Positions 25,858 through 62,929 of a DNA stretch of 64,000 nt are shown here, in pieces. Source of the DNA: a virus; the IMG/VR virus record IMGVR_UViG_3300042884_000193, positions 32,001 through 96,000 of that record; one strand, given 5' to 3'. How positions within the stretch are numbered: position 1 is the stretch's first letter; every line of letters begins with the position of its first letter. A program made the position numbers and the translations under genes. Below the pieces are notes generated by a model. The model did not search any database, was not told the origin of the DNA, and saw only the letters and a list, made by a program, of their open reading frames with translations.

Positions 25858-26760
25858 TTAAACTGCATTATTAATATTATAGTCAATCGGATAAAAATAT
25901 GACTTGAACATGTCATAGTATTTACCATACATAGCCTTACGATTCATAGCCCAAACTTTCTGCATCTCAGAGAAGTTAGGAGTATTAACTACCGATAGTG
26001 CATTATTACGCGCAGCTCTAAATTCAGTAGCAATTAGTTGATACTGAACTGTCACATTTTCTCCCATAAGAAGTAATGTCTCATAGATTTTCTTTTTAAG
26101 GGCATACTCGTAGTACTCATTTAAAAAAGGGTGATCTGGTACCATTAACTCTCCATCCTCATTCTCCATATTTCCTTGATAGTTGATATAGATGTTACCC
26201 TCTTGGAAGCTTGTCCAAATAAAATTATCTTTTATGTAGGCGTCATCAGAAGAGTACATCTGGAGATTAGGGCAATCACAGTCAATAAACTGAGAATTTT
26301 TAAACCTAATAGGAAACATAGATTTGTAATGACGTGTAGTTGTATTGACAACTTGAATAAGCTGGTAATCATTTCCACATTTTGTTAGGCATACTGGTGT
26401 ATTTGTAGTGTTTACTTGAGAACACAAGTTACCTTCAACCCAATCTCTATATTCAGGAACTACTTGTTGAATCTGAGTACCTTGAGGATTTACAATAGTA
26501 CTCGTATACTCACCACAAATAAGAGCAAAGTTCATTACAAAGAAGTCATCAGGAAGTCTAACCTTTCCTTTAACAACTTCTAAAACTTTTTCTTTAGTGT
26601 GATATATACGTAGACCTAAATCATAGTTAGCTTTAATTGCAATTTTGACAAGCGTAGCAGGCTCAATTTTGTTCTCCAATGACGCAGTTGGAAGATCCAC
26701 TCGGACATCTTCCAAAAGTTGCTCAAAAGTCCTATATTTAAGAGTGTAGTTATAGTTCAT
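25858..26760 (-). CDS. Tail ring / tubular protein (300 aa)
   Basis: KVRLPDDF and FQEGNIYINY...DGELMVPD...YYEYAL motifs; immediately upstream of the stabilisation protein. Confidence 0.6.
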   Translation of the reverse strand: MNYNYTLKYRTFEQLLEDVRVDLPTASLENKIEPATLVKIAIKANYDLGLRIYHTKEKVLEVVKGKVRLPDDFFVMNFALICGEYTSTIVNPQGTQIQQVVPEYRDWVEGNLCSQVNTTNTPVCLTKCGNDYQLIQVVNTTTRHYKSMFPIRFKNSQFIDCDCPNLQMYSSDDAYIKDNFIWTSFQEGNIYINYQGNMENEDGELMVPDHPFLNEYYEYALKKKIYETLLLMGENVTVQYQLIATEFRAARNNALSVVNTPNFSEMQKVWAMNRKAMYGKYYDMFKSYFYPIDYNINNAV

Positions 26761-27431
26761 GTTCTGATAATGTTTTGTTTGTCATCTTGAGCACTGTCCG
26801 CTGGCATTTGAGCTGTTGTAAAGAATCCTGATACAACCTGCTGCTCAATCTCCATAAATAGATATTCAGGTAATGCTAGTTGTTGATCTTGTCTTATAGA
26901 ACATTCTGAATTTGCATCACAAGTAAATAAAGTAACATCATCTTCAAATATACCTTCAACCTTTGCAGCATCCCAATCTACATTAGGAAAATACAAATAA
27001 CCATTGAGGTACCAAAAATACTTAGTCTTATTGTATCTAAATTTGGTAGTCTTAGTCATTGCTGTATATTGAGCAGGGTCTGTTTTATATACAAAGAATG
27101 ACCCGTCAACAGAAGTCACACTCCTAAGCAATGGGCCATAGGTACCTTCCATAAGGTTAGGTAACTTTTCTCTAGTGCGTTTTATTATTACTCCGGACTG
27201 AACATCGCAGCATGCCTCAACCTTGTCTATCTCAATAAGCTCGACGCAAGGCAAAGTTTTAAATATACTGTTATACTTAAGCAGTTGATTCAGTGAATCT
27301 TGTCGCTTAAGATAAAATTTTGCAGCCTTTGTTATAAGACTGAATAAGAGTCTATCAGTAATAAAAGCATCTTGAGTAAGACCTTTTATTAATGAGCGGA
27401 CCCTTGATATGCTTTCTCCTACTGTAGTCAT
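26757..27431 (-). CDS. Head-tail ring/adaptor protein (224 aa)
   Basis: LPCVELIEID and YFWYLNGYLYFPN...VEGIFED motifs; ATGA overlap with the next gene. Confidence 0.55.
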   Translation of the reverse strand: MTTVGESISRVRSLIKGLTQDAFITDRLLFSLITKAAKFYLKRQDSLNQLLKYNSIFKTLPCVELIEIDKVEACCDVQSGVIIKRTREKLPNLMEGTYGPLLRSVTSVDGSFFVYKTDPAQYTAMTKTTKFRYNKTKYFWYLNGYLYFPNVDWDAAKVEGIFEDDVTLFTCDANSECSIRQDQQLALPEYLFMEIEQQVVSGFFTTAQMPADSAQDDKQNIIRT

Positions 27432-27433
27432 AG

Positions 27434-28015
27434 TTAAAATTCAAATTCATTATATGTTGAAATATCTTGTTCTTTAAGCTCAGAGAAAACAAAAGGCTTT
27501 GTTCTATTTGATATTAAAGCTGATACATTATCGCGTCTGCCTATGGTTACATAGGTCTTCCAGTTATTCTTAAACTCAGCAGAAAAGGTTCTCTTAAACT
27601 GTCTAATTGGAGTAAACCCCCACATAGAATAGTCTTTCATTGTACCCTTCTGCGTATAGTTGGTATAAAATATTTTAGCCAATGCCCCATCTGACTCCCA
27701 ATTCTTTCTTGCTACAGCTCCATCATCATTATGATAACTATAATAAGTCTTATAGTTATTACCATCATTGATGCAAGTAGCGCCAAATAACATTCCCAAA
27801 TGCTCCGGAAGCTTAATACCATCTCGGGTAGTAATAACAGTTTTCCAGATCTCTTCAGAATGATGCATTATAATTTCTTTAAACTCCTTGTACTCAAGGT
27901 CTTTGTATTTAGGGAACTTGTTAATGAATTCTTTAAACATGTCTATGTTCAAAGTAGTTATAACATTCTTCCTAAATCTAGGTCCTTTTATATCAGGTCT
28001 TTGGTTATTACTCAT
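27434..28015 (-). CDS. HU/IHF-like DNA-binding protein (193 aa)
   Basis: GIKLPEHLGML resembles the HU/IHF beta-hairpin motif; position matches the IHF-like gene of crAss-like tail modules. Confidence 0.5.
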   Translation of the reverse strand: MSNNQRPDIKGPRFRKNVITTLNIDMFKEFINKFPKYKDLEYKEFKEIIMHHSEEIWKTVITTRDGIKLPEHLGMLFGATCINDGNNYKTYYSYHNDDGAVARKNWESDGALAKIFYTNYTQKGTMKDYSMWGFTPIRQFKRTFSAEFKNNWKTYVTIGRRDNVSALISNRTKPFVFSELKEQDISTYNEFEF

Positions 28016-28090
28016 AACGTATACTACAATTTACAAAATTTCTTTCAGGTTTGAAAGATAATACATAATTGATTACTAGACAAGTAGTAG

Positions 28091-28117
28091 AAAGCCCCCA
28101 AGTTGTACTTGAGGGCC
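28091..28117 (-). terminator. Probable intrinsic terminator
   Basis: Minus strand GCCCTCAAGT-ACA-ACTTGGGGGC followed by a short TTTCTAC tail. Confidence 0.55.
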
Positions 28118-28120
28118 CCC

Positions 28121-28156
28121 TGGTTTAGTCACGAATAAACCAACAAACGTAGACTA
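28121..28156 (-). promoter_or_regulatory. Hairpin with loop antisense to the phage leader motif
   Basis: Minus strand TAGTC-T-ACG[TTTGTTGGTTTATT]CGT-GACTA, then AACCA; see findings. Confidence 0.5.
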
Positions 28157-28699
28157 TAATACAGGTAATGTCTTTATCATAATAAGCGCACTAATAGAAG
28201 TATCGCCATCACAATCTGTTCTCACTCTAAAATAATAGTTAGTATTAGAGTTTAAAAGAGTAAGTGTAAAAGTAGGAGTTGTTAAAGTAGGTGAGGTTGT
28301 ATATACCCCTTCTACAGTTCCATAATCTACAGTATAACTTTCTGCTCCTGTATCTTCCCAATTAAGTATGATAGCTGTTGTACCTACATAACTAGGATGT
28401 ATATTGATTGGAGGAAGACAGTTAGGATCAACACTTTGTGCTGACATTGCTTGGTAAGCATTTTCTAGTGAAGCTCCTGCAGGTAATGCTGGGTAAGAGT
28501 CACCACCTGCTAATAATTCTCCAAAGTTAATGATGCTATAGTTACCATGTTTTACACAAGTGTCTTGGATAGTCTCATAGCACGGAGTTGGATCCGGGCA
28601 TTTAATATCAGGAGGACATGTATATACAGGTGCAGTTGTAAGGGGGAGATCCTTACAACCGCATGATGTATTTGTAGATTGACAAGTTGAACAAGCCAT
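28154..28699 (-). CDS. Cys-rich structural protein with C-terminal fibronectin type III domain (181 aa)
   Basis: PPINI...IILNW...YTVDY...LNSNTNYYFRVRTDC FN3 pattern; CxxC/CxC N-terminus. Confidence 0.7.
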   Translation of the reverse strand: MACSTCQSTNTSCGCKDLPLTTAPVYTCPPDIKCPDPTPCYETIQDTCVKHGNYSIINFGELLAGGDSYPALPAGASLENAYQAMSAQSVDPNCLPPINIHPSYVGTTAIILNWEDTGAESYTVDYGTVEGVYTTSPTLTTPTFTLTLLNSNTNYYFRVRTDCDGDTSISALIMIKTLPVL

Positions 28700-28704
28700 T
28701 TTAG

Positions 28705-30207
28705 TTAGGGTTTAGTAGTTACTGAGGTAAATGGACAATCTGTAATTGTTGATCCAATAATTACTCTCATGCGAATTTGATAATTAGTAGCTGCTACAAG
28801 ACCTGTTATTTGTCCAAGTACAGGACCTACTGCAGGATTTATAGAAGATACTGTGGTTACAATTGCAGTTTGAGCTGAATTCCAACACTCAAGCATGTAC
28901 GTAACAGGACTTGATAATGGATTAGCAAACACATAATCAATATAAGTAACGTCTGCAGAGTAAGTTACAGATGGACAAAGTGCACTATTCACAATTGAAT
29001 AATTTAAAGATTGGCTACACTTTAAACCAGCTATTGTATCATCCATACATAAGTTAAGACTTACGGTATAGTCAGTATAAGCATTTAAAGATGTTGCGGT
29101 TATATTAATTGGAACAGGTGCTCCATTAATATTAGATGCAACATTAATTTGTGTAGTATAGGCATTACCATATGCATCGGTTATTGTTATGTAACAACCT
29201 GCTGCATAGCAATCTGTAAATGATCCAATAGAACCAGTTAGATCAACAAGGATACTTGGTGATGTGTAAGATGCTGTCATAGTTACATCAACATCATCGC
29301 AGCTTGGTGTGCAGCATGTAGTAACTACATTGTATACTGCATTACGCATATCACAAATAGTAATCCACATATTGTTGATTGCATCTGCCATAGTGTTATA
29401 ACTACCTGCCAATACCCATCCTGGCAAACTACCCATGTTAACGGATGTGTTAGTTAGGGAAGGTGATGTATCTAAGTTTATACACTCTTGTGAAATGGCT
29501 GAATAAATCTGAGAAGGTGTACCTGTAGAGTTTTGAAGAGCACAGAATGTAGTCTCAAGGTTCTCTACAAAATCACTAATATCAATATTAGTTCCAGCAG
29601 TTAAACAACTAGTAGGAATTGTAATAGGGGGGTATACGGGATTACAAGGATCACAAGCTTCAATTATTATCAATCTATCATTGATATCTGTTACTGTATT
29701 TGTTAGGGCCGTTAAGCTGCTTGCAATAGAGCAAACTCTTGATCCAATTGCTGCAGCATAATCTGCAATAGACATTTCTACAACAAGATTACCAAATCCA
29801 TCAGTATATTGAAAACAAGAAGCAATTGGAACTAAACAGCTCATTGATTCTTGACAATTGGTTACAGGAACTTCTCCAGGAACTAAAGATTTACTTGTAC
29901 CTGTAGTAGTGGATGTTCCTGTTGTAAGTGCACAAAGTTGATCTAAGATAAACTGAATAAGATCATGAATATTCTCAGGCTTTGGACAAATAGGTGAGAA
30001 ACACGTTAAGTCAAAACCAGGATTGGTAAGACTTAGTTGCTCAGCTAATGTGCATATCTCTATTGCTACCTTATAAGTAACATCAGAAATACTATCTCCT
30101 CTGCATAATGTAATGCATGGAATATCCGGTCCCTGCCAGATTACGCAGTTACTTGAAACAGGATTACATCCTGCTTGAGTATTAGTTGGTTGAATAGGAA
30201 GTGCCAT
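28705..30207 (-). CDS. Cys-rich fibre-like protein with C-terminal FN3 domain (500 aa)
   Basis: Many cysteines, short coiled-coil segments, C-terminal ITGLVAATNYQIRMRV. Confidence 0.65.
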   Translation of the reverse strand: MALPIQPTNTQAGCNPVSSNCVIWQGPDIPCITLCRGDSISDVTYKVAIEICTLAEQLSLTNPGFDLTCFSPICPKPENIHDLIQFILDQLCALTTGTSTTTGTSKSLVPGEVPVTNCQESMSCLVPIASCFQYTDGFGNLVVEMSIADYAAAIGSRVCSIASSLTALTNTVTDINDRLIIIEACDPCNPVYPPITIPTSCLTAGTNIDISDFVENLETTFCALQNSTGTPSQIYSAISQECINLDTSPSLTNTSVNMGSLPGWVLAGSYNTMADAINNMWITICDMRNAVYNVVTTCCTPSCDDVDVTMTASYTSPSILVDLTGSIGSFTDCYAAGCYITITDAYGNAYTTQINVASNINGAPVPINITATSLNAYTDYTVSLNLCMDDTIAGLKCSQSLNYSIVNSALCPSVTYSADVTYIDYVFANPLSSPVTYMLECWNSAQTAIVTTVSSINPAVGPVLGQITGLVAATNYQIRMRVIIGSTITDCPFTSVTTKP

Positions 30208-30244
30208 ATATATAATTTACTGTTTTTTTATCTATTATCAAAAT

Positions 30245-32542
30245 TTATCCTCCGCATAATAAGCATGGCAAAACACCATCTTCTAAAACTATACTTGTAA
30301 TATTTGCTGAGGTCATAGTATATGTTTGAAAAGTAGGATCGGAACCAGCAACTATTGTAAATCCAATTGCCCATAAACAATTACCATTATAATTAAATAC
30401 GTATGCAGAAAAAGGATCCAGGCTATCTAAAATATTATAATCAAGTACCAGATTAAATTGAGGACAAAGATTAGCACCTCCGCTAGGGGCACTCCCATCA
30501 AGACACTGTGTGCAACCAAAAGTACCTGGATCAACTCCATACGCTCCTACTGTAAATGTATAAGTTATAGGTGGAGGTGGTGGTATAAAAGGATTACCTG
30601 AAGGTTCTGGACAAATAACTGGAACAACAGGTGTTGTTATTATACAGGCTGTAGGATCATTGATAACAGCTAAGTCTGATAAATTCTTTTTAATCCATAA
30701 TCTTTCTAGGTTAATACCATCGCATTGATTACTTATACCATACTTTAACTCTTTAAACAGTCTGTAGTAACCATCTGCAAATCTTATGTTAGCCGTTATA
30801 TCACACTGACTCTGCTGGATCTGATAAAACTTTCTATCAGGCTTAGGAATAACTCTTGTATACTTTATAGGAGCTGGATCTGGTGCTGGAAGACAGCACT
30901 CACAGTCTTTAAATATTTGAAGAACTCCTTCCTCATCTACGTATATAGTAAGATTACTAATTGCTTGATCATCAAAAGGAATTTCTGCTACTTTCCAACA
31001 ACTTCTTGGATCTGTATCTTGTGTTATTTTAACAACCTGCTCAAGTTCTGCAGGTTCTGCAAACTGAGAATTATAAGTATAAAGAATATCTAAAGGATCT
31101 AAACAATTAGTCAACTCATAAACAGGAGGTGGGCCAGGTAATTGACTTGCACAATCTGGACAAGTTCCAAAATTATTTAGTATTGTTATTGCTTGAGGTG
31201 AATCACCTGATTGTTCTACTACTAACCAACAAGTATTCGGATAACCTGCAATATAAAGAACTTGGCCTACGTATCCTGATATACCTGGTGTTAAAGCTAC
31301 CGTTGTGTATTGTGTTTGCTCTAGTGCTATACAGTCCCTTATAGCATAAATAGTCGGAGGTGGATCACATGCTGCGCAGTTTGCAACCGAGATAATATTA
31401 GAATATACCACATGTATTGTATTACTACAATCCTCTGATTCTGTTACATAAAAACAAGAACCATCAATATTAACAAAACCGTCAAGGTAAGATGAGAATT
31501 CAGTATTAGATGCAATTAAAATATCACCTGTTTGACCACAGGGTGTTAATACATAACAAGTTACATCAGCTACAGAACTTGTCATTGCAAGTACTGACTT
31601 CTGGTATGTGTCAGATACAGATGCCGTAAATGTAGTTAAATTAACTTGTTCTAATCTATAGATGGTTTCATCAGCGTCACTGTTAAAAAATCCAACTGGG
31701 GCACCACTTGTAGTAAATCCTTGAAAAAGGGTTGATCCTGATTTAGAGTCAATTGTTGTAGGGGGTATCATACCTACTGTATTTATCCAACTAGCACCTG
31801 CATTGTAAGAATACAATACATTACCATTACCTGCAGAAGCAATTAAAATATTATCACTTGACCAAGCTAGATTAGTATACTTAGGTGATTTGCCCATAGC
31901 AGCAACGGTTGTACCAAAGTACTGGACCATAGTAAAACCTAATCCACCATCTGTTGATCTAAATATTTTTCTTTTTGTAGTTACTATAATAGTAGATGCA
32001 TCTGCTGATAAATGCAGACTTGTTATATAGTCATTAGGAAAAGCAGAGTCTATAACATTACCGGTATATAACGGTAACCATGACACACCGCCATCAATTG
32101 TCTTATATAATTTAGATTCTTGAGATGCAATACCAACTAAATCATTTATAAAATGAATAGCAAGGCATTGAAGGCCAATTACTGCAGTAAAACTATTTAA
32201 GCGATTAAATGATACACCACCATCTGTAGATTTTGCTACACCGCCCATACCCGCTGTATAGATGATACTATTATTATTGGTATAACTTATTCGATAAATA
32301 GTTGGTGTATATGCGCTCCAGTTACCTGTACAAGTTACAAGAGTAGTACCACTATCAACTGACCTAGACAGATAGCCTAATCCTCCTAATATAATTTCAT
32401 TAGGATTAGTGGGATCAGCTTTTACATCATAGAATGCAGGTGAACCACTAATAGATTTATCGGTCCATATGCTTGTAGCATGATCATAGACTTTTAGTTT
32501 TCCCTCATCACCACAATAATATGTTTTACCTATAATGGGCAT
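30245..32542 (-). CDS. BNR/Asp-box beta-propeller protein with Cys-rich repeats (765 aa)
   Basis: Asp-box repeats SVDSGTTL, STDGGVSF, TIDGGVSW, STDGGLGF, SYNAGASW, then repeats ending CxxC. Confidence 0.75.
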   Translation of the reverse strand: MPIIGKTYYCGDEGKLKVYDHATSIWTDKSISGSPAFYDVKADPTNPNEIILGGLGYLSRSVDSGTTLVTCTGNWSAYTPTIYRISYTNNNSIIYTAGMGGVAKSTDGGVSFNRLNSFTAVIGLQCLAIHFINDLVGIASQESKLYKTIDGGVSWLPLYTGNVIDSAFPNDYITSLHLSADASTIIVTTKRKIFRSTDGGLGFTMVQYFGTTVAAMGKSPKYTNLAWSSDNILIASAGNGNVLYSYNAGASWINTVGMIPPTTIDSKSGSTLFQGFTTSGAPVGFFNSDADETIYRLEQVNLTTFTASVSDTYQKSVLAMTSSVADVTCYVLTPCGQTGDILIASNTEFSSYLDGFVNIDGSCFYVTESEDCSNTIHVVYSNIISVANCAACDPPPTIYAIRDCIALEQTQYTTVALTPGISGYVGQVLYIAGYPNTCWLVVEQSGDSPQAITILNNFGTCPDCASQLPGPPPVYELTNCLDPLDILYTYNSQFAEPAELEQVVKITQDTDPRSCWKVAEIPFDDQAISNLTIYVDEEGVLQIFKDCECCLPAPDPAPIKYTRVIPKPDRKFYQIQQSQCDITANIRFADGYYRLFKELKYGISNQCDGINLERLWIKKNLSDLAVINDPTACIITTPVVPVICPEPSGNPFIPPPPPITYTFTVGAYGVDPGTFGCTQCLDGSAPSGGANLCPQFNLVLDYNILDSLDPFSAYVFNYNGNCLWAIGFTIVAGSDPTFQTYTMTSANITSIVLEDGVLPCLLCGG

Positions 32543-32550
32543 ATCTTAAT

Positions 32551-32685
32551 TTATTTAGGTGTATCAATAGTTTTAGCAACAGGTTTTGGTTTGTGTATAC
32601 AATGTGTACACATTTGTTTACCGTCTTTAGTTGTTCTCTTTTGGCAGCCACAACTCAGGGCTGTTCCACAATTTGCGCATTTCAT
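32551..32685 (-). CDS. Small Cys-rich metal-binding protein (44 aa, not in ORF track)
   Basis: MKCANCGTALSCGCQKRTTKDGKQMCTHCIHKPKPVAKTIDTPK; AAACCAAC leader upstream. Confidence 0.7.
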   Translation of the reverse strand: MKCANCGTALSCGCQKRTTKDGKQMCTHCIHKPKPVAKTIDTPK

Positions 32686-32702
32686 GATATGTTGGTTTTA
32701 AA

Positions 32703-33260
32703 TTATTTACACGTTCCACACCCACATCCACAAGCTAACTTAGTAAGTTTACCTAACACATAAGTGTACATTGCCATACCTTCTGTAGGGTTATGACAAT
32801 ACTCTACACGTGCTTTAGCAGCTTGTAACATGGTCCAGAGAAGTTGTACTTCTCTTAATTTATTTGCTAGAGGTGATAGGGGTTCACAATTAGGAACATC
32901 TAGACAACAAAGCAAATCATTTATCTGGTTTAATGCCTGAGTAATACGTAAGTGGTTATACTCAACATAAACAGTCTCATTAGGAGCAACACTGTATCTA
33001 ACAACATATACACCATCAGGAATTGCATTACGTGTAGTTCCACAGTTAGTTAATTGTAAACCTAACTCACATGCTGTATAGTTTACAGAGAAGTCTGTAC
33101 CTGGTTGCAATTCAATTGCAGTGGTAAATCCAGGAGCTGTAATCTCAAGCTTAGGACAATCCAAAGGTACAGTATCATTGTAAGTACTAGTATCTATAAC
33201 TCTAAAGATACAGTTAGTAAGAACATCAGGAATTTCTATTGAGAGTGCGTGTTGTGCCAT
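32703..33260 (-). CDS. Structural (tail/hub-type) protein (185 aa)
   Basis: IPDGVYVVRYSVAP motif; TATCTTTG promoter element upstream. Confidence 0.55.
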   Translation of the reverse strand: MAQHALSIEIPDVLTNCIFRVIDTSTYNDTVPLDCPKLEITAPGFTTAIELQPGTDFSVNYTACELGLQLTNCGTTRNAIPDGVYVVRYSVAPNETVYVEYNHLRITQALNQINDLLCCLDVPNCEPLSPLANKLREVQLLWTMLQAAKARVEYCHNPTEGMAMYTYVLGKLTKLACGCGCGTCK

Positions 33261-33272
33261 AGTACTAAGTTA

Positions 33273-33280
33273 CAAAGATA
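33273..33280 (-). promoter_or_regulatory. Bacteroidota-type -7 promoter element TATCTTTG
   Basis: Matches TAnnTTTG; just after a terminator and 13 nt before an ATG. Confidence 0.55.
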
Positions 33281-33292
33281 TAGTGTAAAAAT

Positions 33293-33330
33293 AAAAAAGG
33301 GAGAGAGTTTTTTTTGCTCCCTCCCTTTTT
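33293..33330. terminator. Intrinsic terminator (potentially bidirectional)
   Basis: AAAAAAGGGAG...CTCCCTTTTT inverted repeat downstream of 33348..34916. Confidence 0.8.
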
Positions 33331-33347
33331 ATAAGTTTTAGTTAAGA

Positions 33348-34916
33348 TTATCGGTTGTCCGCGTTAGGATCAATTGGGTCGCAAGTCTCTGGACAAGCAT
33401 ATGTTGTCAAAGTAGTACAGCCGCTACCTGCGTTGCTCAACCAAGCTTCAACAAAGCCTTCAAATGCTACGTTGTAGTTAGTAGTTGCAGACAATACACT
33501 TGTTGCATCTAATGCTACAGTTATAGGTGCTGTTGCACTACCTAAAGTAATTGTGAATACTGTAGTACTTACTACTTCATAGATGTAAGCATTAGCAACG
33601 ATAGTACCCGTTCCACCTGTTAAAGTAACAACCATACCTGGTAACAAACCTGCTGTAGAAGCTACAGTGATTGTACCATAAGCTGGAATAGCACCTGCAG
33701 CAGCAGTACTTGTAGAAGCAGCAGTTGAATCAATACCTGCAACAACATTATCCTCAGTTACAACAATTTGCAACAAGTACTGATCATTATCAAATACACC
33801 AGTTGGGTTGTTAAAGCGGGGAACATTGTGCTGAATATAATAGCTAGTATAGAAAGCATTGCGATTAATTGTATCATACACGTCTGTACCATTAGTGATC
33901 TCACGGATACGCAAGTCAGATCCAGTATAGAAAGGTTGTTGCATGTAGGCTTCAGTTAAGATAAGCTGACGAATAACATTCTCTCCTGTTCCTTTTAATT
34001 GCTGAGGGGTACAAGTATCATTAACACAGATACCTGTGAAAGCACAAGGATCTCCATTAAGATCTACTTCAGAAGCATAGATTTTAACTGGCTCTAAGAA
34101 AGCAATGATAGAATCATTAGGGTAGAAAGTACAGTCTTGGAAACGTGTATCAACATAAGCTCCTGTAATAATCAAACCAGCACCGTCAGTAGCATCAGCA
34201 GGGTCAACTACAGGAAGAGATGCTGGATTCTGAATGTAACCTAATAATAGATCTAAGTTTGTCGTAGAAGATGTACCATCTCCAAGCTCAGTCCAAGACC
34301 CACCACTGTTAGTTGTATAAGTAATCGCAACTTGAATAAATGGATTAACCAATGGAGAGTTCAACAATTGGTAAGCCCACTGTACGTATACAATCAAAGG
34401 ATTTACAGCTACTGGAGCAATTGCATCAGCTGGACAACATCCAGTGTAACCAGCGGCAGTATAATAACTATTACGAGTTAATGTACGTAATACTGGAGAA
34501 CCTTTGATGTCTACACGCAAGTTGTAAGTTTCACCGCAAAGGAAATCTTTAGTGCAAGTACCACCAAATTCATAGTCTGTATCACCTACTACAATTTGAG
34601 CTTGTTGAGAAGGACAAGATTCTACTTTGTAGAAAGATGATACATACTTAGGGTTGATAGTCTTAGACTTTACAGACTCAGAATATCCACCGTGGAATGG
34701 ACCAATTTTGTCATTAGGGTGAATAGAACCTGATACAAGTACCAATGGGCACTTTAAAGCAGTTGATGGATCAAGATCCGTAGGGATAGTCCAAGTTTTT
34801 GGATCAACAAAAGTAAACTGACCTAGAGTTAAGTCACTTGTTGATAATCCTGGATCAGTAACAAAACCATTGTATCCTACAAAGGTTTTCTGAAAGGCAT
34901 GATTAAAATACGACAT
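33348..34916 (-). CDS. Major structural protein (auxiliary capsid / crAss gene-73-like position), 522 aa
   Basis: Own terminator and promoter-like element suggest high expression; inserted small beta-barrel segment ITVASTAGLLPGMVV; gene order. Confidence 0.5.
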   Translation of the reverse strand: MSYFNHAFQKTFVGYNGFVTDPGLSTSDLTLGQFTFVDPKTWTIPTDLDPSTALKCPLVLVSGSIHPNDKIGPFHGGYSESVKSKTINPKYVSSFYKVESCPSQQAQIVVGDTDYEFGGTCTKDFLCGETYNLRVDIKGSPVLRTLTRNSYYTAAGYTGCCPADAIAPVAVNPLIVYVQWAYQLLNSPLVNPFIQVAITYTTNSGGSWTELGDGTSSTTNLDLLLGYIQNPASLPVVDPADATDGAGLIITGAYVDTRFQDCTFYPNDSIIAFLEPVKIYASEVDLNGDPCAFTGICVNDTCTPQQLKGTGENVIRQLILTEAYMQQPFYTGSDLRIREITNGTDVYDTINRNAFYTSYYIQHNVPRFNNPTGVFDNDQYLLQIVVTEDNVVAGIDSTAASTSTAAAGAIPAYGTITVASTAGLLPGMVVTLTGGTGTIVANAYIYEVVSTTVFTITLGSATAPITVALDATSVLSATTNYNVAFEGFVEAWLSNAGSGCTTLTTYACPETCDPIDPNADNR

Positions 34917-34984
34917 GTTTTTTTGTTTTTAAGGGTTATAAATATATATTCAATATAAGAAGAACTTTTATATTCTCCAAATTT

Positions 34985-35575
34985 TTACAAATAATCTTTC
35001 ATCTCATGGTCAAGTAAGCGCATTGCTGTCTTGTCTGTACCAAAAGCATTGAGCTGGTCTACCCAGTTTTGCATCTTGTTATGCTCTTCTACCTGCTCTT
35101 TTAGATACGCTAATGCAAACTCATATAACATATGATCTGCTTTCTTCATAGCATCATTTGCTAAATCTTTAATCTGCTTAGTTATGGTAATTTCATGGTC
35201 ATAAGACATTTCAATAATTTCAGGCAATCCTGAAAAAGTTTGATTTGGTGCATCTAACTTAGGAGTCATTGGCTGTACGCCCATAGATAACAAGTAAGTT
35301 CTTGCTAAATCTGAATGAGCCATTTCCTCATTAGAGTACTTACGCCAAATTTTAGCAGCATTAACATAACCGTTATTATCTAACCACATAGACATAGCCA
35401 AGTAGATTCTACCTGAGTATTCTTCTTGTTGTACGCGATAGTTTAAATACTCTACGCAGTCATCTGACAATAGTATGTTCTTACCTTTAGTAGGTATTGC
35501 TTTCTTTAAAGTTGCTTGTGGTGCTGTTGTACCTACGACTTCTCTCTTTAGTAAATTTCTTGGTTGTTCGGCCAT
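34985..35575 (-). CDS. ftnA: Ferritin (FtnA-like, non-haem)
   Basis: Ferroxidase-centre pattern QQEEYSGRIY, EEMAH, DHE, EQVEE on a four-helix bundle; ~30-aa basic N-terminal extension. Confidence 0.85.
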   Translation of the reverse strand: MAEQPRNLLKREVVGTTAPQATLKKAIPTKGKNILLSDDCVEYLNYRVQQEEYSGRIYLAMSMWLDNNGYVNAAKIWRKYSNEEMAHSDLARTYLLSMGVQPMTPKLDAPNQTFSGLPEIIEMSYDHEITITKQIKDLANDAMKKADHMLYEFALAYLKEQVEEHNKMQNWVDQLNAFGTDKTAMRLLDHEMKDYL

Positions 35576-35586
35576 TATTGCATGTA

Positions 35587-36291
35587 TTATGAGTTTTCTT
35601 CACTAGAGCTTTGAGCAATTTGATATTGAGTAATTGACTCTATATCACCTGCTAAAACTTGCACAGCGTCATCAACAATAGTTTCAGCGACATCATCTTT
35701 AAATTCACAAGGAACATCTGATGTAACTACAAAACCTGTGTATGGATTAACACAGCCTAAAATTTGTATCTCAACTGGATTTCTATAGTAGATAAGGTTA
35801 ACTGTATCTATAGTAAAATCTGATTCTGTATATACTTTAATCTTGTTACCGGCTAAGGTACAAAATGTTTCTGCCCATTCAAAACTAGGCTTCTTGTTGG
35901 TATCACGTAGCAGAATTGCTGCATTAGCCTCCTCAGCTAAATAAACAATCATGCGCCTTGGATTAGGGCAACAGTCACTAGAGGCATAAGCATCAATTCT
36001 CTTAAACTCCATGTAGTCTGGAGGTAATGATTCTGACATTACATAATCAGGCATGTTAACAGTTGAGAGAGCTGTTGTTGTTAGCAAGGGTTGAAGATCA
36101 TCAATTTTCCTTTTTGATTGCTCATCACCTTGCTTTTGGATATTAATACCTGCAAGTTGTCGACGGACCCATTGGATCTGTGCTTTATTAAAAGCCTCAA
36201 CAATCTGCCAGCACTCTATGTTATCATAGTCATTACTAGCAAGCTTGTTAAGCCTTTGTTTTATTTTAATTTGCAGGGTTGAGTTGTTCAT
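35587..36291 (-). CDS. Head-tail connector ring protein (234 aa)
   Basis: LNKLASN...AFNKAQ...EQSKRKIDDLQPL and YYRNPV motifs; position after MCP-associated genes. Confidence 0.6.
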   Translation of the reverse strand: MNNSTLQIKIKQRLNKLASNDYDNIECWQIVEAFNKAQIQWVRRQLAGINIQKQGDEQSKRKIDDLQPLLTTTALSTVNMPDYVMSESLPPDYMEFKRIDAYASSDCCPNPRRMIVYLAEEANAAILLRDTNKKPSFEWAETFCTLAGNKIKVYTESDFTIDTVNLIYYRNPVEIQILGCVNPYTGFVVTSDVPCEFKDDVAETIVDDAVQVLAGDIESITQYQIAQSSSEENS

Positions 36292-36464
36292 TATCCTTTA
36301 ACTCTTTTTAATCTTGGGTTTTTAGCTTTTGCTTTAGCAGAAGCCTTGCGTGTGCTAGTAGCTAAGATAGCTCCAGCAGCTTTTTTAGAAATGCCTTGTT
36401 TAGCAGCAATCTTAGATTGCACTGATTTAAAACCAGGATGTGCCGAATTACTCTTTTTCATCAT
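36291..36464 (-). CDS. Small K/A-rich basic protein (57 aa, not in ORF track)
   Basis: MMKKSNSAHPGFKSVQSKIAAKQGISKKAAGAILATSTRKASAKAKAKNPRLKRVKG; TAATG overlap with the next gene. Confidence 0.75.
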   Translation of the reverse strand: MMKKSNSAHPGFKSVQSKIAAKQGISKKAAGAILATSTRKASAKAKAKNPRLKRVKG

Positions 36465-36472
36465 CTATACTT

Positions 36473-36727
36473 TTAACATTTCCACTTTCTAAGTGACTTA
36501 TTGATTCTGCTATCAGGATCATTAGCTGTCTTAGAGCTTGTAAGTTTCTTTTTCATACCAGACATTCTAGCACAAAAGCTTTTCTTTCTAGCTCCGCCCT
36601 CTGGTTGCGGTGCCTTCAATCCGGGTTTGCCAGGATTGGCTTTGTTATAAGAAGCACGTCCTTTAGCATTAAGACCACCACTTGGTGCCTTACCCTCTTT
36701 TCTTTGCCATGCTGGTGACTTTGCCAT
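36473..36727 (-). CDS. Small basic phage protein (DUF6321-like, recognised from memory)
   Basis: AWQRKEGK..GGLNAKGRASYN...RKKSFCARM...RINKSLRKWKC pattern. Confidence 0.65.
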   Translation of the reverse strand: MAKSPAWQRKEGKAPSGGLNAKGRASYNKANPGKPGLKAPQPEGGARKKSFCARMSGMKKKLTSSKTANDPDSRINKSLRKWKC

Positions 36728-37113
36728 TATTTCTTTTTTTTAACAGTTCCCCCCGCTTTACGATGCTGTATTTGTGCATTTAATATTGAAAGTTTGTCTC
36801 CTGCACGACCGGCCTTAGTAGCTATTCTATTCCCCAAGTTAAAGTTATTATTTTCATATGCACTTCTTGCTCTATTTTCCAAATTGGCACTTCTGTTAGT
36901 CAAGAAATTTTTCTTAACGTTTTCAGAAAAGGTAGCCTTAGGATCATTTTGTTTAAAAATACCACCTTCCTCGTATTTCTTAACAGATTTAGCTTTAATC
37001 TTTTTCTCTTGCTTAAGCATTTGCGCAGTAGGTTTCTTTCCAGAACCTTTGTTAGCGCGAATGTTATCCCAAAGTCCTCTTTGAGATGTACTTCCATCTT
37101 TGCGCTTAAGCAT
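36727..37113 (-). CDS. Basic protein; start reassigned to ATG 37113
   Basis: MLKRKDGSTSQRGLWDNIRANKG...; the track start (GTG 37134) overlaps the upstream small gene. Confidence 0.65.
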   Translation of the reverse strand: MLKRKDGSTSQRGLWDNIRANKGSGKKPTAQMLKQEKKIKAKSVKKYEEGGIFKQNDPKATFSENVKKNFLTNRSANLENRARSAYENNNFNLGNRIATKAGRAGDKLSILNAQIQHRKAGGTVKKKK

Positions 37114-37117
37114 TTGT

Positions 37118-37252
37118 TTACTTTTTGCAGCCACAGCTAGTCATTTTTGTGGGATACACAGAACTCAAAGCACCACCTCTTTTAAAGGTAGGCTTTGAAT
37201 TAGCATATCCAATTAATGATTTCTTTTCAGCAGTATTTACAATCTTGCTCAT
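37118..37252 (-). CDS. Small basic protein (44 aa, not in ORF track)
   Basis: MSKIVNTAEKKSLIGYANSKPTFKRGGALSSVYPTKMTSCGCKK; fills the gap exactly. Confidence 0.65.
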   Translation of the reverse strand: MSKIVNTAEKKSLIGYANSKPTFKRGGALSSVYPTKMTSCGCKK

Positions 37253-37254
37253 TA

Positions 37255-38142
37255 TTACTTTTTACCACCTTTTTTGTACATACCACCTTTGTTATACATG
37301 CCTCCTTTGTTGTACATAGGTGACATTTTACTACCAGCTCTTCCTCCTCGCTTCTTTTCACTAAGATCAACAATTTTAGTACCTGCTTTCTTCAAGCGAG
37401 TTGAGATAACAGAATTTGATCTTGATGAAGATGATCCACCTTCAGCATTAGAGCTAGAGTTAGCCTTAGAAGATCCTCCTGTTGCACCAGCATCACTTCT
37501 TGATGCAGGATTTGCCTGCACTTTAGTTGTTTGGTTATTGCTGTTAACATTAGTAGTAGTTGAAACAGATTCAGGATTTTTTCCACCACGCAATACTTCA
37601 GCAGTGCGTCTAGCTTTTGCATCTCTAACACCACCTAATACTTCTTCTTTTCTAACTTTTTTATTCCAACGTCCTTCTTGACGAGCTGCTTTATCAGCTG
37701 CTTTGTTTGCTGCTTTAGTTGCTGCTTTATCTTGTCTTATATCAGCTCTTTCGGATCTGCCCTGAACACGTGTAGTACGTCTATCTTGACGATCTTGACG
37801 TCTGTCTGCAGCACCAGGACCTTTACCAGCTATGGCTTTAACTGTATTTTTAACTCCTCTACCTACGGCAGAAGCAGCATCAGCAACAGCATATCTAGCA
37901 TCATCTAGAGCATATCCAACATCAAATGCTACACCTTTAGCTGTATTTTTGTCTTTTGATACACCTTTTTTAACAACTGTTTTAAGATAAGGACCATCAG
38001 TGCGCTTTATCACTGATTTTTTAATATCACCTTTTCTATTTCGAACAACAGTTTCTTTAATAGAATAAGGACTTCCATCACCAACAATAGGAGTGGTTGT
38101 TGTAGTTCTTCTAGGAACTTTGGGTTTTTTACTTGTTGCCAT
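37255..38142 (-). CDS. Highly basic, low-complexity protein (295 aa)
   Basis: K/R/S-rich; ends MYNKGGMYNKGGMYKKGGKK. Confidence 0.75.
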   Translation of the reverse strand: MATSKKPKVPRRTTTTTPIVGDGSPYSIKETVVRNRKGDIKKSVIKRTDGPYLKTVVKKGVSKDKNTAKGVAFDVGYALDDARYAVADAASAVGRGVKNTVKAIAGKGPGAADRRQDRQDRRTTRVQGRSERADIRQDKAATKAANKAADKAARQEGRWNKKVRKEEVLGGVRDAKARRTAEVLRGGKNPESVSTTTNVNSNNQTTKVQANPASRSDAGATGGSSKANSSSNAEGGSSSSRSNSVISTRLKKAGTKIVDLSEKKRGGRAGSKMSPMYNKGGMYNKGGMYKKGGKK

Positions 38143-39406: not shown

Positions 39407-39446
39407 GTTTGTTGGTTTTATTTTTTATTGGTTTTGTAAAGATAGT

Positions 39447-39492: not shown

Positions 39493-41112
39493 TTAGAATG
39501 ATCCGCCAGTGATTGGGTTACGCATAACAATTTTCAATACTTTGGTTGGGTCTTTAACCCAGATTGCAGGCATTGTTTGTGTCATGTATACACGGTATCC
39601 ATTGAATTGTCCAGAAGACGCAAAGCCTTGGCTACGTCCCATGTAATCCATAGTTCCGTTTTGGTACCACCACTTTAATTGATTATCCCAAGATAATTTC
39701 AACAAGAAGATGTTGTCATTAGTATTATCTGTGATATCAAAGATGATGAAGCTATAAGAAGACAATGGGAAACCATCAATGATTGGGTTTTCAATGTCAT
39801 TAGTATGTAAGTTGTCAAACGCTGGGTTAAGCACAAACTTCACGTTAGCCAAGAATGGGATAACATAAGAAGTGTAAGCAAATCCAAAGTTCAAGTCCAT
39901 ACCTTGACCAGTGATTGCTCCGATGTCAGCAGCTTGGATCAACAAACCTGAAGACATTGCTTCACGCTTGATTGCCTCATTAACCATACGCATACCACCC
40001 ATACCTGTTTGTACAATCAACTGACGCTTAGGATCTGGACCTTGGAAGTCAACCTTACCAGCGTAGAAGTTATACAATTCAGAACGGAATAAGTCAAGGT
40101 TAAAACCAGACTTGTTATATACGCGCTTAAATGAGTTGTCCAATTGCTTCCAAAGACCCACAGATAAACGCAAGTCATCTGGACCGTCTTGACGCACACG
40201 ACCACCTTGTCCCCACATTAAGTAAGTCTCGATGTCATTTGCAACTTTAGCCAAGTGAGCTGCTTCCATTGCAGTTAAGAAAGTGCGGCTTAAAGATCCG
40301 TTAGACATAGCACGCTTAACATAATCCTTACCCATACGCGAAACCATAGTATCTAGGTTAGCTACAGATGGATCCATGTTTTTGTCAAAGTTACGCCAGA
40401 TCTCTACTACAGGTACAGTACCATCAGCATTCATACCACCCTTAAGCATAAGGTCAGCACGAGAAGATACAGAATAGTGTACGTGAGCTTCAGTTCCTCC
40501 TACAAAGTTGTAGAATTCACGGAAACCAGTAGCAGTAGTGATGTCAGAGAAACGCTCTCCGTACTCACCACGAGCAGAACCTTTACGGAAGATTTTAGTA
40601 CCTGGTACAAGATAGTTAGTTGATAACGAGAAAGAGCTATCATTGTTTACCAATTGTACAGTGTACAAGAAACCATCACCTAGAGGAACAATGTCATCTA
40701 CAGTAATGTACATCTCAGCACCGTTGTACTTGTCATAAGTGATGATATCACCATGTCCAAATTCACGACGTGACAATTTGATTCTAAATGTAGTACCATC
40801 AGCACCTACTGTTGTAGCGCCATCTAATTCTACATCATCAACAATGTAAGGAAGATCTAATACAACTGGTGTTTGCCACTTGTACTCTCCACGAGCATTG
40901 TCAACATTAATTACATTCTTTCCACCAAAGCTAGACATTTGGTACAAAGGCATTTCTACCTTTTGCGCCATTGCCCAAAGATCTACTGGTCCTAAATCCA
41001 TAGGTTCAGAGTTCTTGAGCATGTTAACCAAGTGGTAAGAATCTACGTGTGAGCTAGCGGTGTAGCTGGTATCCCGCAGAAATATACCATTGTTTAAAAC
41101 TGGAGTTGCCAT
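39493..41112 (-). CDS. Major capsid protein (539 aa)
   Basis: EYKWQ, GLWKQL, VQTGMGGM, VLNPAFD and IWVKDPTK motifs; portal-scaffold-MCP order; strong terminator. Confidence 0.85.
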   Translation of the reverse strand: MATPVLNNGIFLRDTSYTASSHVDSYHLVNMLKNSEPMDLGPVDLWAMAQKVEMPLYQMSSFGGKNVINVDNARGEYKWQTPVVLDLPYIVDDVELDGATTVGADGTTFRIKLSRREFGHGDIITYDKYNGAEMYITVDDIVPLGDGFLYTVQLVNNDSSFSLSTNYLVPGTKIFRKGSARGEYGERFSDITTATGFREFYNFVGGTEAHVHYSVSSRADLMLKGGMNADGTVPVVEIWRNFDKNMDPSVANLDTMVSRMGKDYVKRAMSNGSLSRTFLTAMEAAHLAKVANDIETYLMWGQGGRVRQDGPDDLRLSVGLWKQLDNSFKRVYNKSGFNLDLFRSELYNFYAGKVDFQGPDPKRQLIVQTGMGGMRMVNEAIKREAMSSGLLIQAADIGAITGQGMDLNFGFAYTSYVIPFLANVKFVLNPAFDNLHTNDIENPIIDGFPLSSYSFIIFDITDNTNDNIFLLKLSWDNQLKWWYQNGTMDYMGRSQGFASSGQFNGYRVYMTQTMPAIWVKDPTKVLKIVMRNPITGGSF

Positions 41113-41144
41113 GTTTTTTTTATTTATTTAAGGGTTAAGTTAAT

Positions 41145-42362: not shown

Positions 42363-42460
42363 TGTTTGTTGGTTTATAATATTAATATAGGCAAAAGTAT
42401 TCATTTAAACTTTTAAGATTTTAAAATCTCAAAAATTAAAGTTGATCATATAGCTAATGG

Positions 42461-49053: not shown

Positions 49054-49399
49054 TTTTATGTTGGTTTTTCTTTTCTATATACTCATCCATAATTCCTTTA
49101 GCTCTGTTATATCTCTTTAGTTTTTCTACATAACTATTATAGATGTTATATTTAACAAAGCTTTTAGGGGGATCTTGTGCTACTTCCTTTTTAGCAGACT
49201 CAATCTTCTTATTAAGGATGTTATATCTAAGGGTAAATGTACCGAGATTTGGTAACCTTATAAAGGGATGCTCAATTTCTCCTAGGGTTTTTCTTACATG
49301 TACCCAGTAGAAATCTACAACATCCTTTACAAGATCAGGGCTTTTTTTAAGAGCTTTAGCTGTAGCGCTACTCAGATCCTTTGCTTTCTTGGGGTTCAA
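49019..49399 (-). CDS. HU/IHF-like DNA-binding protein (126 aa)
   Basis: Two N-terminal helices followed by IRLPNLGTFTL. Confidence 0.65.
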   Translation of the reverse strand: MNPKKAKDLSSATAKALKKSPDLVKDVVDFYWVHVRKTLGEIEHPFIRLPNLGTFTLRYNILNKKIESAKKEVAQDPPKSFVKYNIYNSYVEKLKRYNRAKGIMDEYIEKKNQHKNDKQTQKNLED

Positions 49400-49760: not shown

Positions 49761-50024
49761 TTATTTCTCAGCTTTTAGTTTACGGCCTTGTTGAGGAATA
49801 GGCTGCTCTTTAGATTCTGCTGCATGTGAATCAGGACCTGCTTCAATTTGAGCTATCTTCATAGCAGCATACAAGCGTCTAGCTCTAAGTTCTTCTAACT
49901 CAGTAATAGCAGTCTCATAACGCTTTTGAGCTTCAAGTAATTCCATCTGAGAATCAAAGTATTTAATCATCTCAGCTTTTCTCTCCTCAATCATTTCAGG
50001 AGTAATTGTTTGTTGGTTTTCCAT
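49761..50024 (-). CDS. Coiled-coil hypothetical protein (87 aa)
   Basis: ORF with a TATATTTG element upstream. Confidence 0.7.
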   Translation of the reverse strand: MENQQTITPEMIEERKAEMIKYFDSQMELLEAQKRYETAITELEELRARRLYAAMKIAQIEAGPDSHAAESKEQPIPQQGRKLKAEK

Positions 50025-53413: not shown

Positions 53414-53416
53414 TTT

Positions 53417-53539
53417 TTACATTTTTAGTTCATTAAGGGCTTGCAAAATAACCTCTACATCTTTTAGAGTATATACTCCTTTTAATGTAGCTGCATTTAA
53501 CGCTTGCTCAATAATTTCAATTGCTCTTTCTTTTTCCAT
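53417..53539 (-). CDS. Small helical protein, possible fibre chaperone (40 aa, not in ORF track)
   Basis: MEKERAIEIIEQALNAATLKGVYTLKDVEVILQALNELKM; TAATG-coupled to the fibre gene. Confidence 0.65.
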   Translation of the reverse strand: MEKERAIEIIEQALNAATLKGVYTLKDVEVILQALNELKM

Positions 53540-57465: not shown

Positions 57466-57756
57466 TTAATATACAATTGCTACAGCATGGTCTTGAACCA
57501 TCATGTAGTCAACTCCATCTAGTTGTACTAGCTCAGCATTAGATAGCATACCAGCGCTAACATACACCTCATCACCAGACTTAAGATCAGTAACATCAGT
57601 ACCTACAGCAAATACTGTAAGACGAGTCCACTTGATCATCATCTCCTGGTCAAGCTGTGCCTGAACCTCTGGAGTTATTTCTATAAGAGACTTTATTTCT
57701 GATACTGGCTTAGTAATCAGGATGCGTTTTCCGCGTAGTTGTTTGAATGCGCTCAT
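57466..57756 (-). CDS. groES: GroES/Cpn10-like co-chaperonin (96 aa)
   Basis: LRGKRILI...VFAVG....LKSGDEVYV...DGVDYMMV.....AI pattern; TATATTTG at 57780-57787. Confidence 0.8.
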   Translation of the reverse strand: MSAFKQLRGKRILITKPVSEIKSLIEITPEVQAQLDQEMMIKWTRLTVFAVGTDVTDLKSGDEVYVSAGMLSNAELVQLDGVDYMMVQDHAVAIVY

Positions 57757-57799
57757 GTGTTTATTGGTTTAATGTGTGACAAATATATACAAGAATTTG

Positions 57800-62681: not shown

Positions 62682-62737
62682 TGTGTGAAGGATAGACATA
62701 AGGTTTTTATAAGTTCCTTATTGTCGCTGTGTGGAAA

Positions 62738-62775
62738 ACCTGCGGGTGTTGGGCTATGCCCGCAGGTACTTTTTT
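62738..62775 (+). terminator. Intrinsic terminator
   Basis: ACCTGCGGGTGT-loop-ATGCCCGCAGGT, then ACTTTTTT. Confidence 0.85.
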
Positions 62776-62806
62776 GTAAATAAGTTAAATCAATTAATAC
62801 ACGACT

Positions 62807-62929
62807 ATGAAAGCTAGAATTAAAGATGTTATTGTATGGGCTATTGTCATATTAGGCAATGCTGCGATTTGGTATCTGTGGTATCATTTGGGTTATATGG
62901 TAGGAAATTTAAACACGGGGTGTTTATGA
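62807..62929 (+). CDS. Small single-pass membrane protein (40 aa, not in ORF track)
   Basis: MKARIKDVIVWAIVILGNAAIWYLWYHLGYMVGNLNTGCL; ATGA overlap. Confidence 0.6.
   Translation: MKARIKDVIVWAIVILGNAAIWYLWYHLGYMVGNLNTGCL

Follow-up and report, generated by a model that had tools for sequence, protein, structure and literature searches.

A conserved RNA hairpin at the 3' end of a predicted late transcript in crAss-like phages, with a loop complementary to the leader of a scaffold-like gene

CrAss-like phages are among the most abundant phages known. The window analysed here, a stretch of 64,000 nucleotides, comprises bases 32001-96000 of a 119,556-base (119.6-kb) single-contig virus record with direct terminal repeats. 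The carrier genome is a crAss-like phage (Crassvirales), based on its capsid and ring proteins and on the order of its terminase, portal, and capsid genes. A 539-aa protein (39493-41112) matches Crass_capsid (E 2.3e-33), a 224-aa protein (26757-27431) matches CrAss_Ring_2 (E 1.9e-18), and the window encodes homologs of Cellulophaga phage phi14:2 portal, large terminase, and tail tubular proteins in identical order. Comparison of the region flanking the element described below with public phage records gave no DNA or protein match. PHROG and Pfam returned little for the flanking proteins and for the proteins encoded at the candidate target sites, and the 339-aa, 500-aa, 96-aa, and 405-aa proteins had no sequence match in PDB.

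The element lies on the minus strand at the stop codon of a gene encoding a 181-aa protein. The C-terminal domain of this protein resembles fn3 (E 2.9e-05, just below the curated cut-off), and the protein also has a weak match to the PHROG annotation "major tail protein." The features of the locus are:

28154..28699, minus strand: 181-aa gene preceding the hairpin, which falls in its 3' UTR; the C-terminal domain of the product is Fn3-like.
28126..28156, minus strand: RNA hairpin, identified from sequence and RNAfold, from the same element in relatives, and from stem covariation.
28134..28147, minus strand: 14-nt loop, the candidate seed, with a U/G-rich core, GUUGGUUU, that is near-invariant in the family (40 distinct hairpins).
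28092..28118, minus strand: GC-rich 12-pair stem-loop followed by an interrupted U-tract, likely an intrinsic terminator shared with the hairpin (fold and covariation).

The 5' arm of the hairpin begins with five pairs (28156-28152) that open with the TAG stop (28156-28154) of the 181-aa gene, and it continues after a bulged T (28151) with three further pairs (28150-28148); the 3' arm is 28133-28126. RNAfold predicts this hairpin and, 7-8 nt further on, a 12-pair stem formed by 28118-28107 with 28103-28092. The z-score for the 116-nt stretch was -3.18, and equally good folding was obtained in 1 of 200 shuffles. In the minimum-free-energy fold, the loop is open save for two weak pairs. A previous reading of this DNA, made from sequence alone, had placed a hairpin followed by a terminator at the stop of 28154..28699. 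Sequence and RNAfold bear out the hairpin (minus strand 28156-28126, with a 14-nt loop and a GC-rich stem after it). The terminator fared less evenly: the 12-pair stem is predicted and covaries, but the U-tract is interrupted in this phage (it has 4-10 T in relatives) and a simple terminator scan did not call the second stem (28092-28118). The hairpin is located in the 3' UTR and shares its terminator layout with the mRNA, and relatives have the same layout. This location corresponds to the 3' end of a predicted late transcript, at the end of the structural gene block.

The sequence-only reading also suggested that AACCA, immediately 3' of the stem, could pair back to the loop as a pseudoknot. 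This pairing is restricted to the phage in the window and its near-identical kin, and a pseudoknot between 3' spacer and loop was rejected as a family feature. The mean longest match between spacer and loop was 3.8 nt, compared with 3.3 nt for shuffled spacers; nine of the 40 distinct hairpins have a match of at least 5 nt, and a 7-nt match is found only in the window and L001. An Rfam search of 27000-29000 with E values up to 10 yielded no family at the hairpin; the only two matches, to snoRNAs, lay outside it and were attributed to chance. An internal promoter for a free-standing small RNA was considered and rejected, because sigma-70-type matches were at chance level (three found vs. 2.5 expected). 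No Bacteroidota-type -7 box was seen by eye upstream of the hairpin.

Related viral loci were gathered via the neighboring 500-aa protein, which gave 79 loci. A covariance model of the hairpin and terminator matched 66 of them (65 at E ≤0.39, and L076 at E 2.1), and every match was on the gene strand, downstream of the 500-aa gene. Thirteen loci had no model match, at least two of which (L011 and L012) stop short of the expected site. The closer loci carry the hairpin at the same site, 3' of the 181-aa homolog and 5' of the terminator and a 193-aa gene, and their loop is unchanged while the 193-aa protein drops to 33-54% identity. The loop core persists in the family although the flanking proteins fall to approximately 30% identity. 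The hairpin is single-copy, with one strong model match per complete genome (the window genome and relatives G001-G003). A weak second match in the window at 62730-62810 (minus strand, 17.4 bits, E 0.14-0.17) lies among plus-strand genes and is probably only a terminator-like stem.

Stem covariation was evaluated in an alignment of 53 of the 80 sources, from which apparent duplicates and loci with no match were left out; one of the 53 rows is the weak match at 62730-62810, probably a non-member. These sequences represent 40 distinct hairpins, with four to six pair types at each stem position. A 5-nt loop anchor is present in all 40 hairpins, and an identical 12-nt loop is common to 14 of them; variants differ mostly on the 5' side. 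The 28 unbulged hairpins, in which seven pairs are fixed, have 154 Watson-Crick pairs, 38 G.U pairs, one A.C pair, and three others. The ratio of G.U to A.C pairs indicates that only the sense strand can form the fold, which is expected of an RNA and not of a double-stranded DNA site. In an alignment that was fitted to the model and leans towards it, 93.0% of cells were paired, compared with 58.9% in shuffles (none of 500 reached the observed value). All 18 pairs have changed on both sides, and the covariation score was 0.818, compared with 0.08-0.19 when partners were slid. The terminator stem (helix 3) is 95% paired, with changes on both sides in 10 of 10 pairs. The hairpin is thus a conserved, strand-specific RNA structure with a near-invariant loop core. 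The sequence-only reading had expected a covarying stem and an invariant loop at the syntenic site, and this is what the relatives have (66 of 79 loci, 40 distinct stems, loop core kept). It had also named an unconserved loop as evidence against its proposal; the core is kept in the 40 distinct hairpins.

Other conserved sequences were observed near the hairpin. Upstream of the 193-aa gene, a block at 28016-28060 (minus strand) differs very little among 11 relatives, in contrast to the variable remainder of the spacer (compared at the same place in L001-L009, L013, L018, and L019). Judged by its sequence, the block looks like a phage-specific promoter for the genes past the terminator. Loci L045-L079, a distant clade, have a second conserved block (ACGTTGG-like) in the spacer between hairpin and terminator, as well as an A/C-rich tract directly upstream of the hairpin that could pair over 5-6 nt with the 5' half of the loop. 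These extra blocks could mask the seed in cis or provide a second contact.

The cultured crAss-like phage phi14:2 has no such hairpin in its 50-kb structural half (L187, 50001-100000). The single model match in this half is a bare terminator (11.9 bits), and the core 8-mer occurs two times, compared with 1.4 expected. The accessible part of the phi14:2 preprint describes host-RNAP middle and late promoters and no terminator hairpin (10.1101/2020.03.07.982082). Our literature search found nothing on such a hairpin in crAss-like phages.

The main site complementary to the loop is the leader of the 405-aa gene. This gene lies between the portal and major capsid genes, the position of g092 in phi14:2. 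The 405-aa protein has no family match and no PDB match, so we call the gene "scaffold-like" from its position. Its true start is ATG 42362. The open reading frame list had put the start at 42404, but relatives have no ATG at 42404 and a conserved promoter-like block overlaps that position. The sites considered, all on the minus strand, are:

42364..42377, minus strand: 14-nt exact loop complement ending 1 nt before ATG 42362 of the 405-aa scaffold-like gene; duplex -18.6 kcal/mol.
39407..39418, minus strand: 12-nt complement (12/12) abutting ATG 39406 of a 339-aa gene just downstream of the capsid gene; duplex -16.7 kcal/mol.
50008..50019, minus strand: 12-nt complement (12/12) in codons 2-6 of an 87-aa gene (ATG 50024); duplex -16.7 kcal/mol.
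57759..57771, minus strand: 13-nt complement with one G.U, 2 nt before ATG 57756 of a 96-aa ORF; duplex -15.9 kcal/mol.
32690..32698, minus strand: 9-nt complement before a 44-aa ORF (ATG 32685); duplex -11.3 kcal/mol; found in three of three relatives.
49059..49067, minus strand: 9-nt complement before a 108-aa gene (ATG 49053); duplex -11.3 kcal/mol; found in none of three relatives.

All six complementarities had been listed in the sequence-only reading, and all are present where it placed them. The 14/14 match before the scaffold-like ATG (42377-42364) is the one most widely shared among relatives: all 25 distinct orthologous start regions collected have the loop-complement core, which follows a conserved promoter-like block and precedes the ATG by 2-14 nt. 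The family includes five distant genomes in which the 500-aa protein is approximately 32% identical and the scaffold orthologs (426-441 aa) are 48-50% identical to the scaffold-like protein. In all five, the exact 10-mer is rare (two to four copies per genome), with one copy in the hairpin and another immediately 5' of the scaffold ortholog. When the loop consensus was compared with 220 same-composition arrangements against the scaffold start regions, it ranked first (mean longest match 10.4 nt), and the runners-up were register shifts of the same word. By sequence comparison, the entire family has conserved the loop complement at the scaffold-like start.

Further sites differ in how well they are kept. 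The core is at the orthologous start of the 339-aa gene in three of three complete relatives and at the ortholog of the 87-aa gene likewise in three of three; at the 96-aa ORF, the relatives have a T variant of the core. A groES identity that had been attached to the 96-aa ORF (57466-57756) was rejected, as no Pfam, PHROG, or PDB sequence match supports the label. Both 9-nt matches that had been proposed (before 32685 and 49053) are located correctly, but their duplex energy of -11.3 kcal/mol is at background. The match at the 44-aa ORF appears weak by energy, yet conserved, and the one at the 108-aa gene is probably incidental. The 44-aa ORF (32551-32685) begins MKCANCG and is zinc-ribbon-like by eye; its leader core is kept in all four complete genomes.

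Short U/G-rich and A/C-rich sequences can match frequently by chance, and controls were based on shuffled sequences, permuted loops, and sites inside genes. The complement 14-mer with up to two mismatches occurs seven times compared with 0.90 expected, a count reached in none of 100 shuffles; the seven are the hairpin itself, four claimed targets, and two unrelated intragenic sites. The 8-mer core complement has 12 copies in the whole genome, 10 of them sense to local genes and one ambiguous. The hairpin is the only clearly antisense copy, and seven of the sense copies are at starts of ORFs of at least 40 aa. Duplex energy separates four start regions (-15.9 to -18.6 kcal/mol) from the next best (-11.4 kcal/mol). 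Among 860 interior sense windows, the best value was -13.7 kcal/mol, and none reached -15.9 kcal/mol. With permuted loops (n = 200), 0.5% reached -18.6 kcal/mol anywhere, and 11% equaled the observed number of start regions at or below -12 kcal/mol (four, compared with a mean of 1.5).

Counts of short matches gave less separation. Against 500 shuffled loops of the same composition, eight start windows had a match of at least 8 nt (mean 3.1; 7.6% of shuffles equal), and two had a match of at least 10 nt (mean 0.19; 3.4% of shuffles reach this). The same shuffled-loop test gave similar or weaker figures in three relatives. Among the 220 arrangements, scored with the corrected scaffold start, the loop was equaled by 84 for matches of at least 8 nt, by 20 for at least 9 nt, and by three for at least 10 nt. 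For a loop rich in U and G, 8-9-nt matches are background. The eight most over-represented leader 6- or 7-mers of this genome do not include the motif, and those of relative G003 do. A genome-wide leader motif was rejected on these grounds, as 8-9-nt match counts were no better than those of many same-composition arrangements and the motif was not a top leader k-mer. The energy gap and the chance controls together indicate that the signal comes from a few strong sites, foremost among them one deeply conserved target, and not from a general leader code. Coordination of many genes, as suggested by the sequence-only reading, is not supported: four start regions stand out in this genome, and about four or five orthologous genes keep the core in three relatives. 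That reading had asked whether equally good matches occur at random positions. None of the 860 interior sense windows reaches -15.9 kcal/mol, and neither this condition nor that of an unconserved loop refuted the proposal. The counts of 8-9-nt matches are at background. Its caution about low complexity was well placed, since both the loop and the leaders are low-complexity, and this is visible in the shuffle controls.

A different leader word, with core AACCCTTAA, was observed before the capsid gene and at least two others (41113-41140, 34917-34945, and 53414-53440, minus strand). In both this genome and G002, 6- and 7-mers from this word rank with the most over-represented ones in leaders. 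This word may be a promoter or a start-site element.

Co-variation of loop and leader was examined in genomes with a changed loop, and the evidence is mixed. In G008, the loop has a G-to-A change, and of the neighboring motif copies in the scaffold leader, one has the usual form and the other has the corresponding C-to-T change, which gives 13 nt of perfect complement. In the L030 type, G009, G010, and G018, the scaffold leader does not match the changed loop positions, and the complement is reduced to 7-8 nt. G017 and G020 retain 10 nt of complement, located in codons 5-8 in G020. Overall, the leader matches the loop changes in one of five variant genomes, and the two do not, as a rule, change together in this lineage. 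The UUUG at the 5' side of the loop is more conserved than pairing with most leaders would need.

Conservation of loop positions where the leaders mismatch is a point in favor of the main alternative, in which a phage or host protein, or RNA polymerase, recognizes the hairpin. Reading of the loop by such a factor could adjust how efficiently transcription terminates, how far it runs on into the ring, cargo, and virion-polymerase genes downstream, or how stable the 3' end is, and the complementarity would be a by-product of a U/G-rich loop facing A/C-rich leaders. The hairpin is always found close before the GC stem and T run at the end of the structural block, and the genes past it would be needed in lower amounts. 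The background level of genome-wide short-match counts is consistent with this explanation as well, and the second block between hairpin and terminator in the distant clade could be a further protein contact. A by-product of composition does not readily account for the first rank of the loop among 220 same-composition arrangements against scaffold start regions, or for the recurrence of the exact 10-mer at the scaffold gene in five of five distant genomes with only two to four copies per genome. No candidate binding protein was identified. We consider a protein or polymerase site unlikely, although it deserves serious weight.

In the reading that we prefer, pairing of the loop at the scaffold-like leader and at a few other start regions lowers translation of these genes late in infection. 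We propose it as a candidate that is about evenly balanced between right and wrong. Structure, strand, conservation, single copy, and conserved complementarity of the hairpin and its main site are direct observations. According to this proposal, the late transcript that ends after the 181-aa Fn3 gene would carry the hairpin just before the terminator stem, and the stem would serve only to display the 12-14-nt U/G-rich loop. Pairing partners of this loop would be the A/C-rich, short leader of the scaffold-like head gene and, in the phage of the window, the start regions of three other genes (339 aa, 87 aa, and 96 aa). Translation start in Bacteroidota and their phages does not involve Shine-Dalgarno pairing. 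Because the paired stretch is 0-14 nt from the ATG in a leader with no Shine-Dalgarno sequence, pairing should hinder 30S binding. The RNA would have to accumulate, as a processed 3' fragment or as the mRNA end, and pairing would have to occur and result in repression; a search for RNA runs with sequence from 27401-37400 found none. Loading of the 30S subunit would then be blocked, and translation would drop as the 3'-end RNA builds up. The predicted outcome is a late-stage brake, or dosage control, on head-assembly proteins.

Pairing could also be real and follow a different logic. The 5' leader and 3' hairpin of one long late mRNA could pair in cis for end protection or mRNA loop closure, or abundant leader RNA could pair with the nascent loop and alter terminator efficiency, coupling the head genes to the downstream genes. 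The scaffold motif is just downstream of the promoter-like block, which would place it close to the predicted 5' end of the scaffold message, and the loop is at the extreme 3' end of the transcript, on the same strand, approximately 14 kb downstream. However, a hairpin and T-run terminator-like site lies between them, after the capsid gene, which makes a single 14-kb transcript doubtful, and two of the four strong sites are on other transcription units. We judge these arrangements improbable. A DNA-level element, either a protein-binding site or a cruciform, with a double-stranded motif used in both orientations at promoters and at the hairpin, would fit the motif being the same site on double-stranded DNA and adjoining the promoter-like block at the scaffold gene, but it merits hardly any weight given a fold that works only as sense-strand RNA (38 G.U vs. 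1 A.C) and stems that covary freely, which a DNA site would not need.

Pairing of the loop with start regions, as preferred here, would have a wider meaning for this group of phages. We think it possible, at slightly under an even chance, that an environmental crAss-like lineage encodes a dedicated riboregulator, in which a loop-displayed anti-leader seed sets head-gene translation by pairing in trans or between 5' and 3' regions of one mRNA. The hosts of this phage are presumably Bacteroidota, and to our knowledge Bacteroidota lack Hfq. If true, virion-protein dosage in Bacteroidota phages would be under a conserved RNA-on-RNA circuit, the first of its kind, that operates without Hfq. A family-wide, single-copy hairpin with a loop that mirrors the scaffold-gene leader allows RNA-based control of head-assembly dosage in crAss-like phages to be framed as a concrete hypothesis, which is testable by mutation. 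The hairpin is also a compact metagenome marker (invariant loop, free stem, terminator) for the phage lineage and for the end of its late structural transcript.

The lambda nut (boxB) hairpins are RNA signals for antitermination. Like them, the hairpin described here would form in nascent RNA, with a loop that matters, a variable stem, and a link to a terminator. Unlike them, it is at the operon end directly before a terminator and not near a promoter. No boxA-like element and no partner protein were found in this phage, and a nut/boxB-type antitermination signal was rejected because of the position of the hairpin at the operon end. In phage P22, synthesis of the scaffolding protein is under autogenous post-transcriptional control, and the effector is the free protein. 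Scaffolding-protein synthesis would be the regulated step of head assembly in both cases; in P22 the effector is a protein, whereas here it is proposed to be an RNA, and the scaffold role of the 405-aa protein is assigned from position.

GcvB masks CA-rich translational enhancers (PMC7534054). As described in the accessible part of that source, GcvB resembles the proposed regulator in that A/C-rich sequence immediately 5' of start codons is the pairing partner of a single strand rich in U and G, and in that a translation-promoting leader is masked instead of a Shine-Dalgarno sequence. The two have no homology in sequence or structure (no Rfam family with E up to 10). The regulon of the phage hairpin would be much smaller, and the hairpin is not a free-standing RNA gene.

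Some base-pairing small RNAs are derived from mRNA 3' ends, and CpxQ, SroC, and DapZ are examples. These RNAs form a reviewed class (PMC9438474), and the comparison made here is with the class as presented in the available part of the review. The phage hairpin is similar in having a seed-bearing structure in a 3' UTR that would use the predicted terminator of its parental mRNA, a seed that is short, conserved, and single-stranded, and candidate targets at translation start regions. A conserved accessible seed is present, and conserved complementary sites are found at the scaffold-like start, with a weaker signal for further genes. It differs in that the seed is in a hairpin loop, in that it is phage-encoded and would be aimed at the phage's own head genes, and in that it is known here from sequence alone. 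By analogy, the closest known logic may be a combination of masking as in GcvB with small RNAs cut from mRNA 3' ends, as far as the available parts of the two sources describe them (PMC7534054, PMC9438474).
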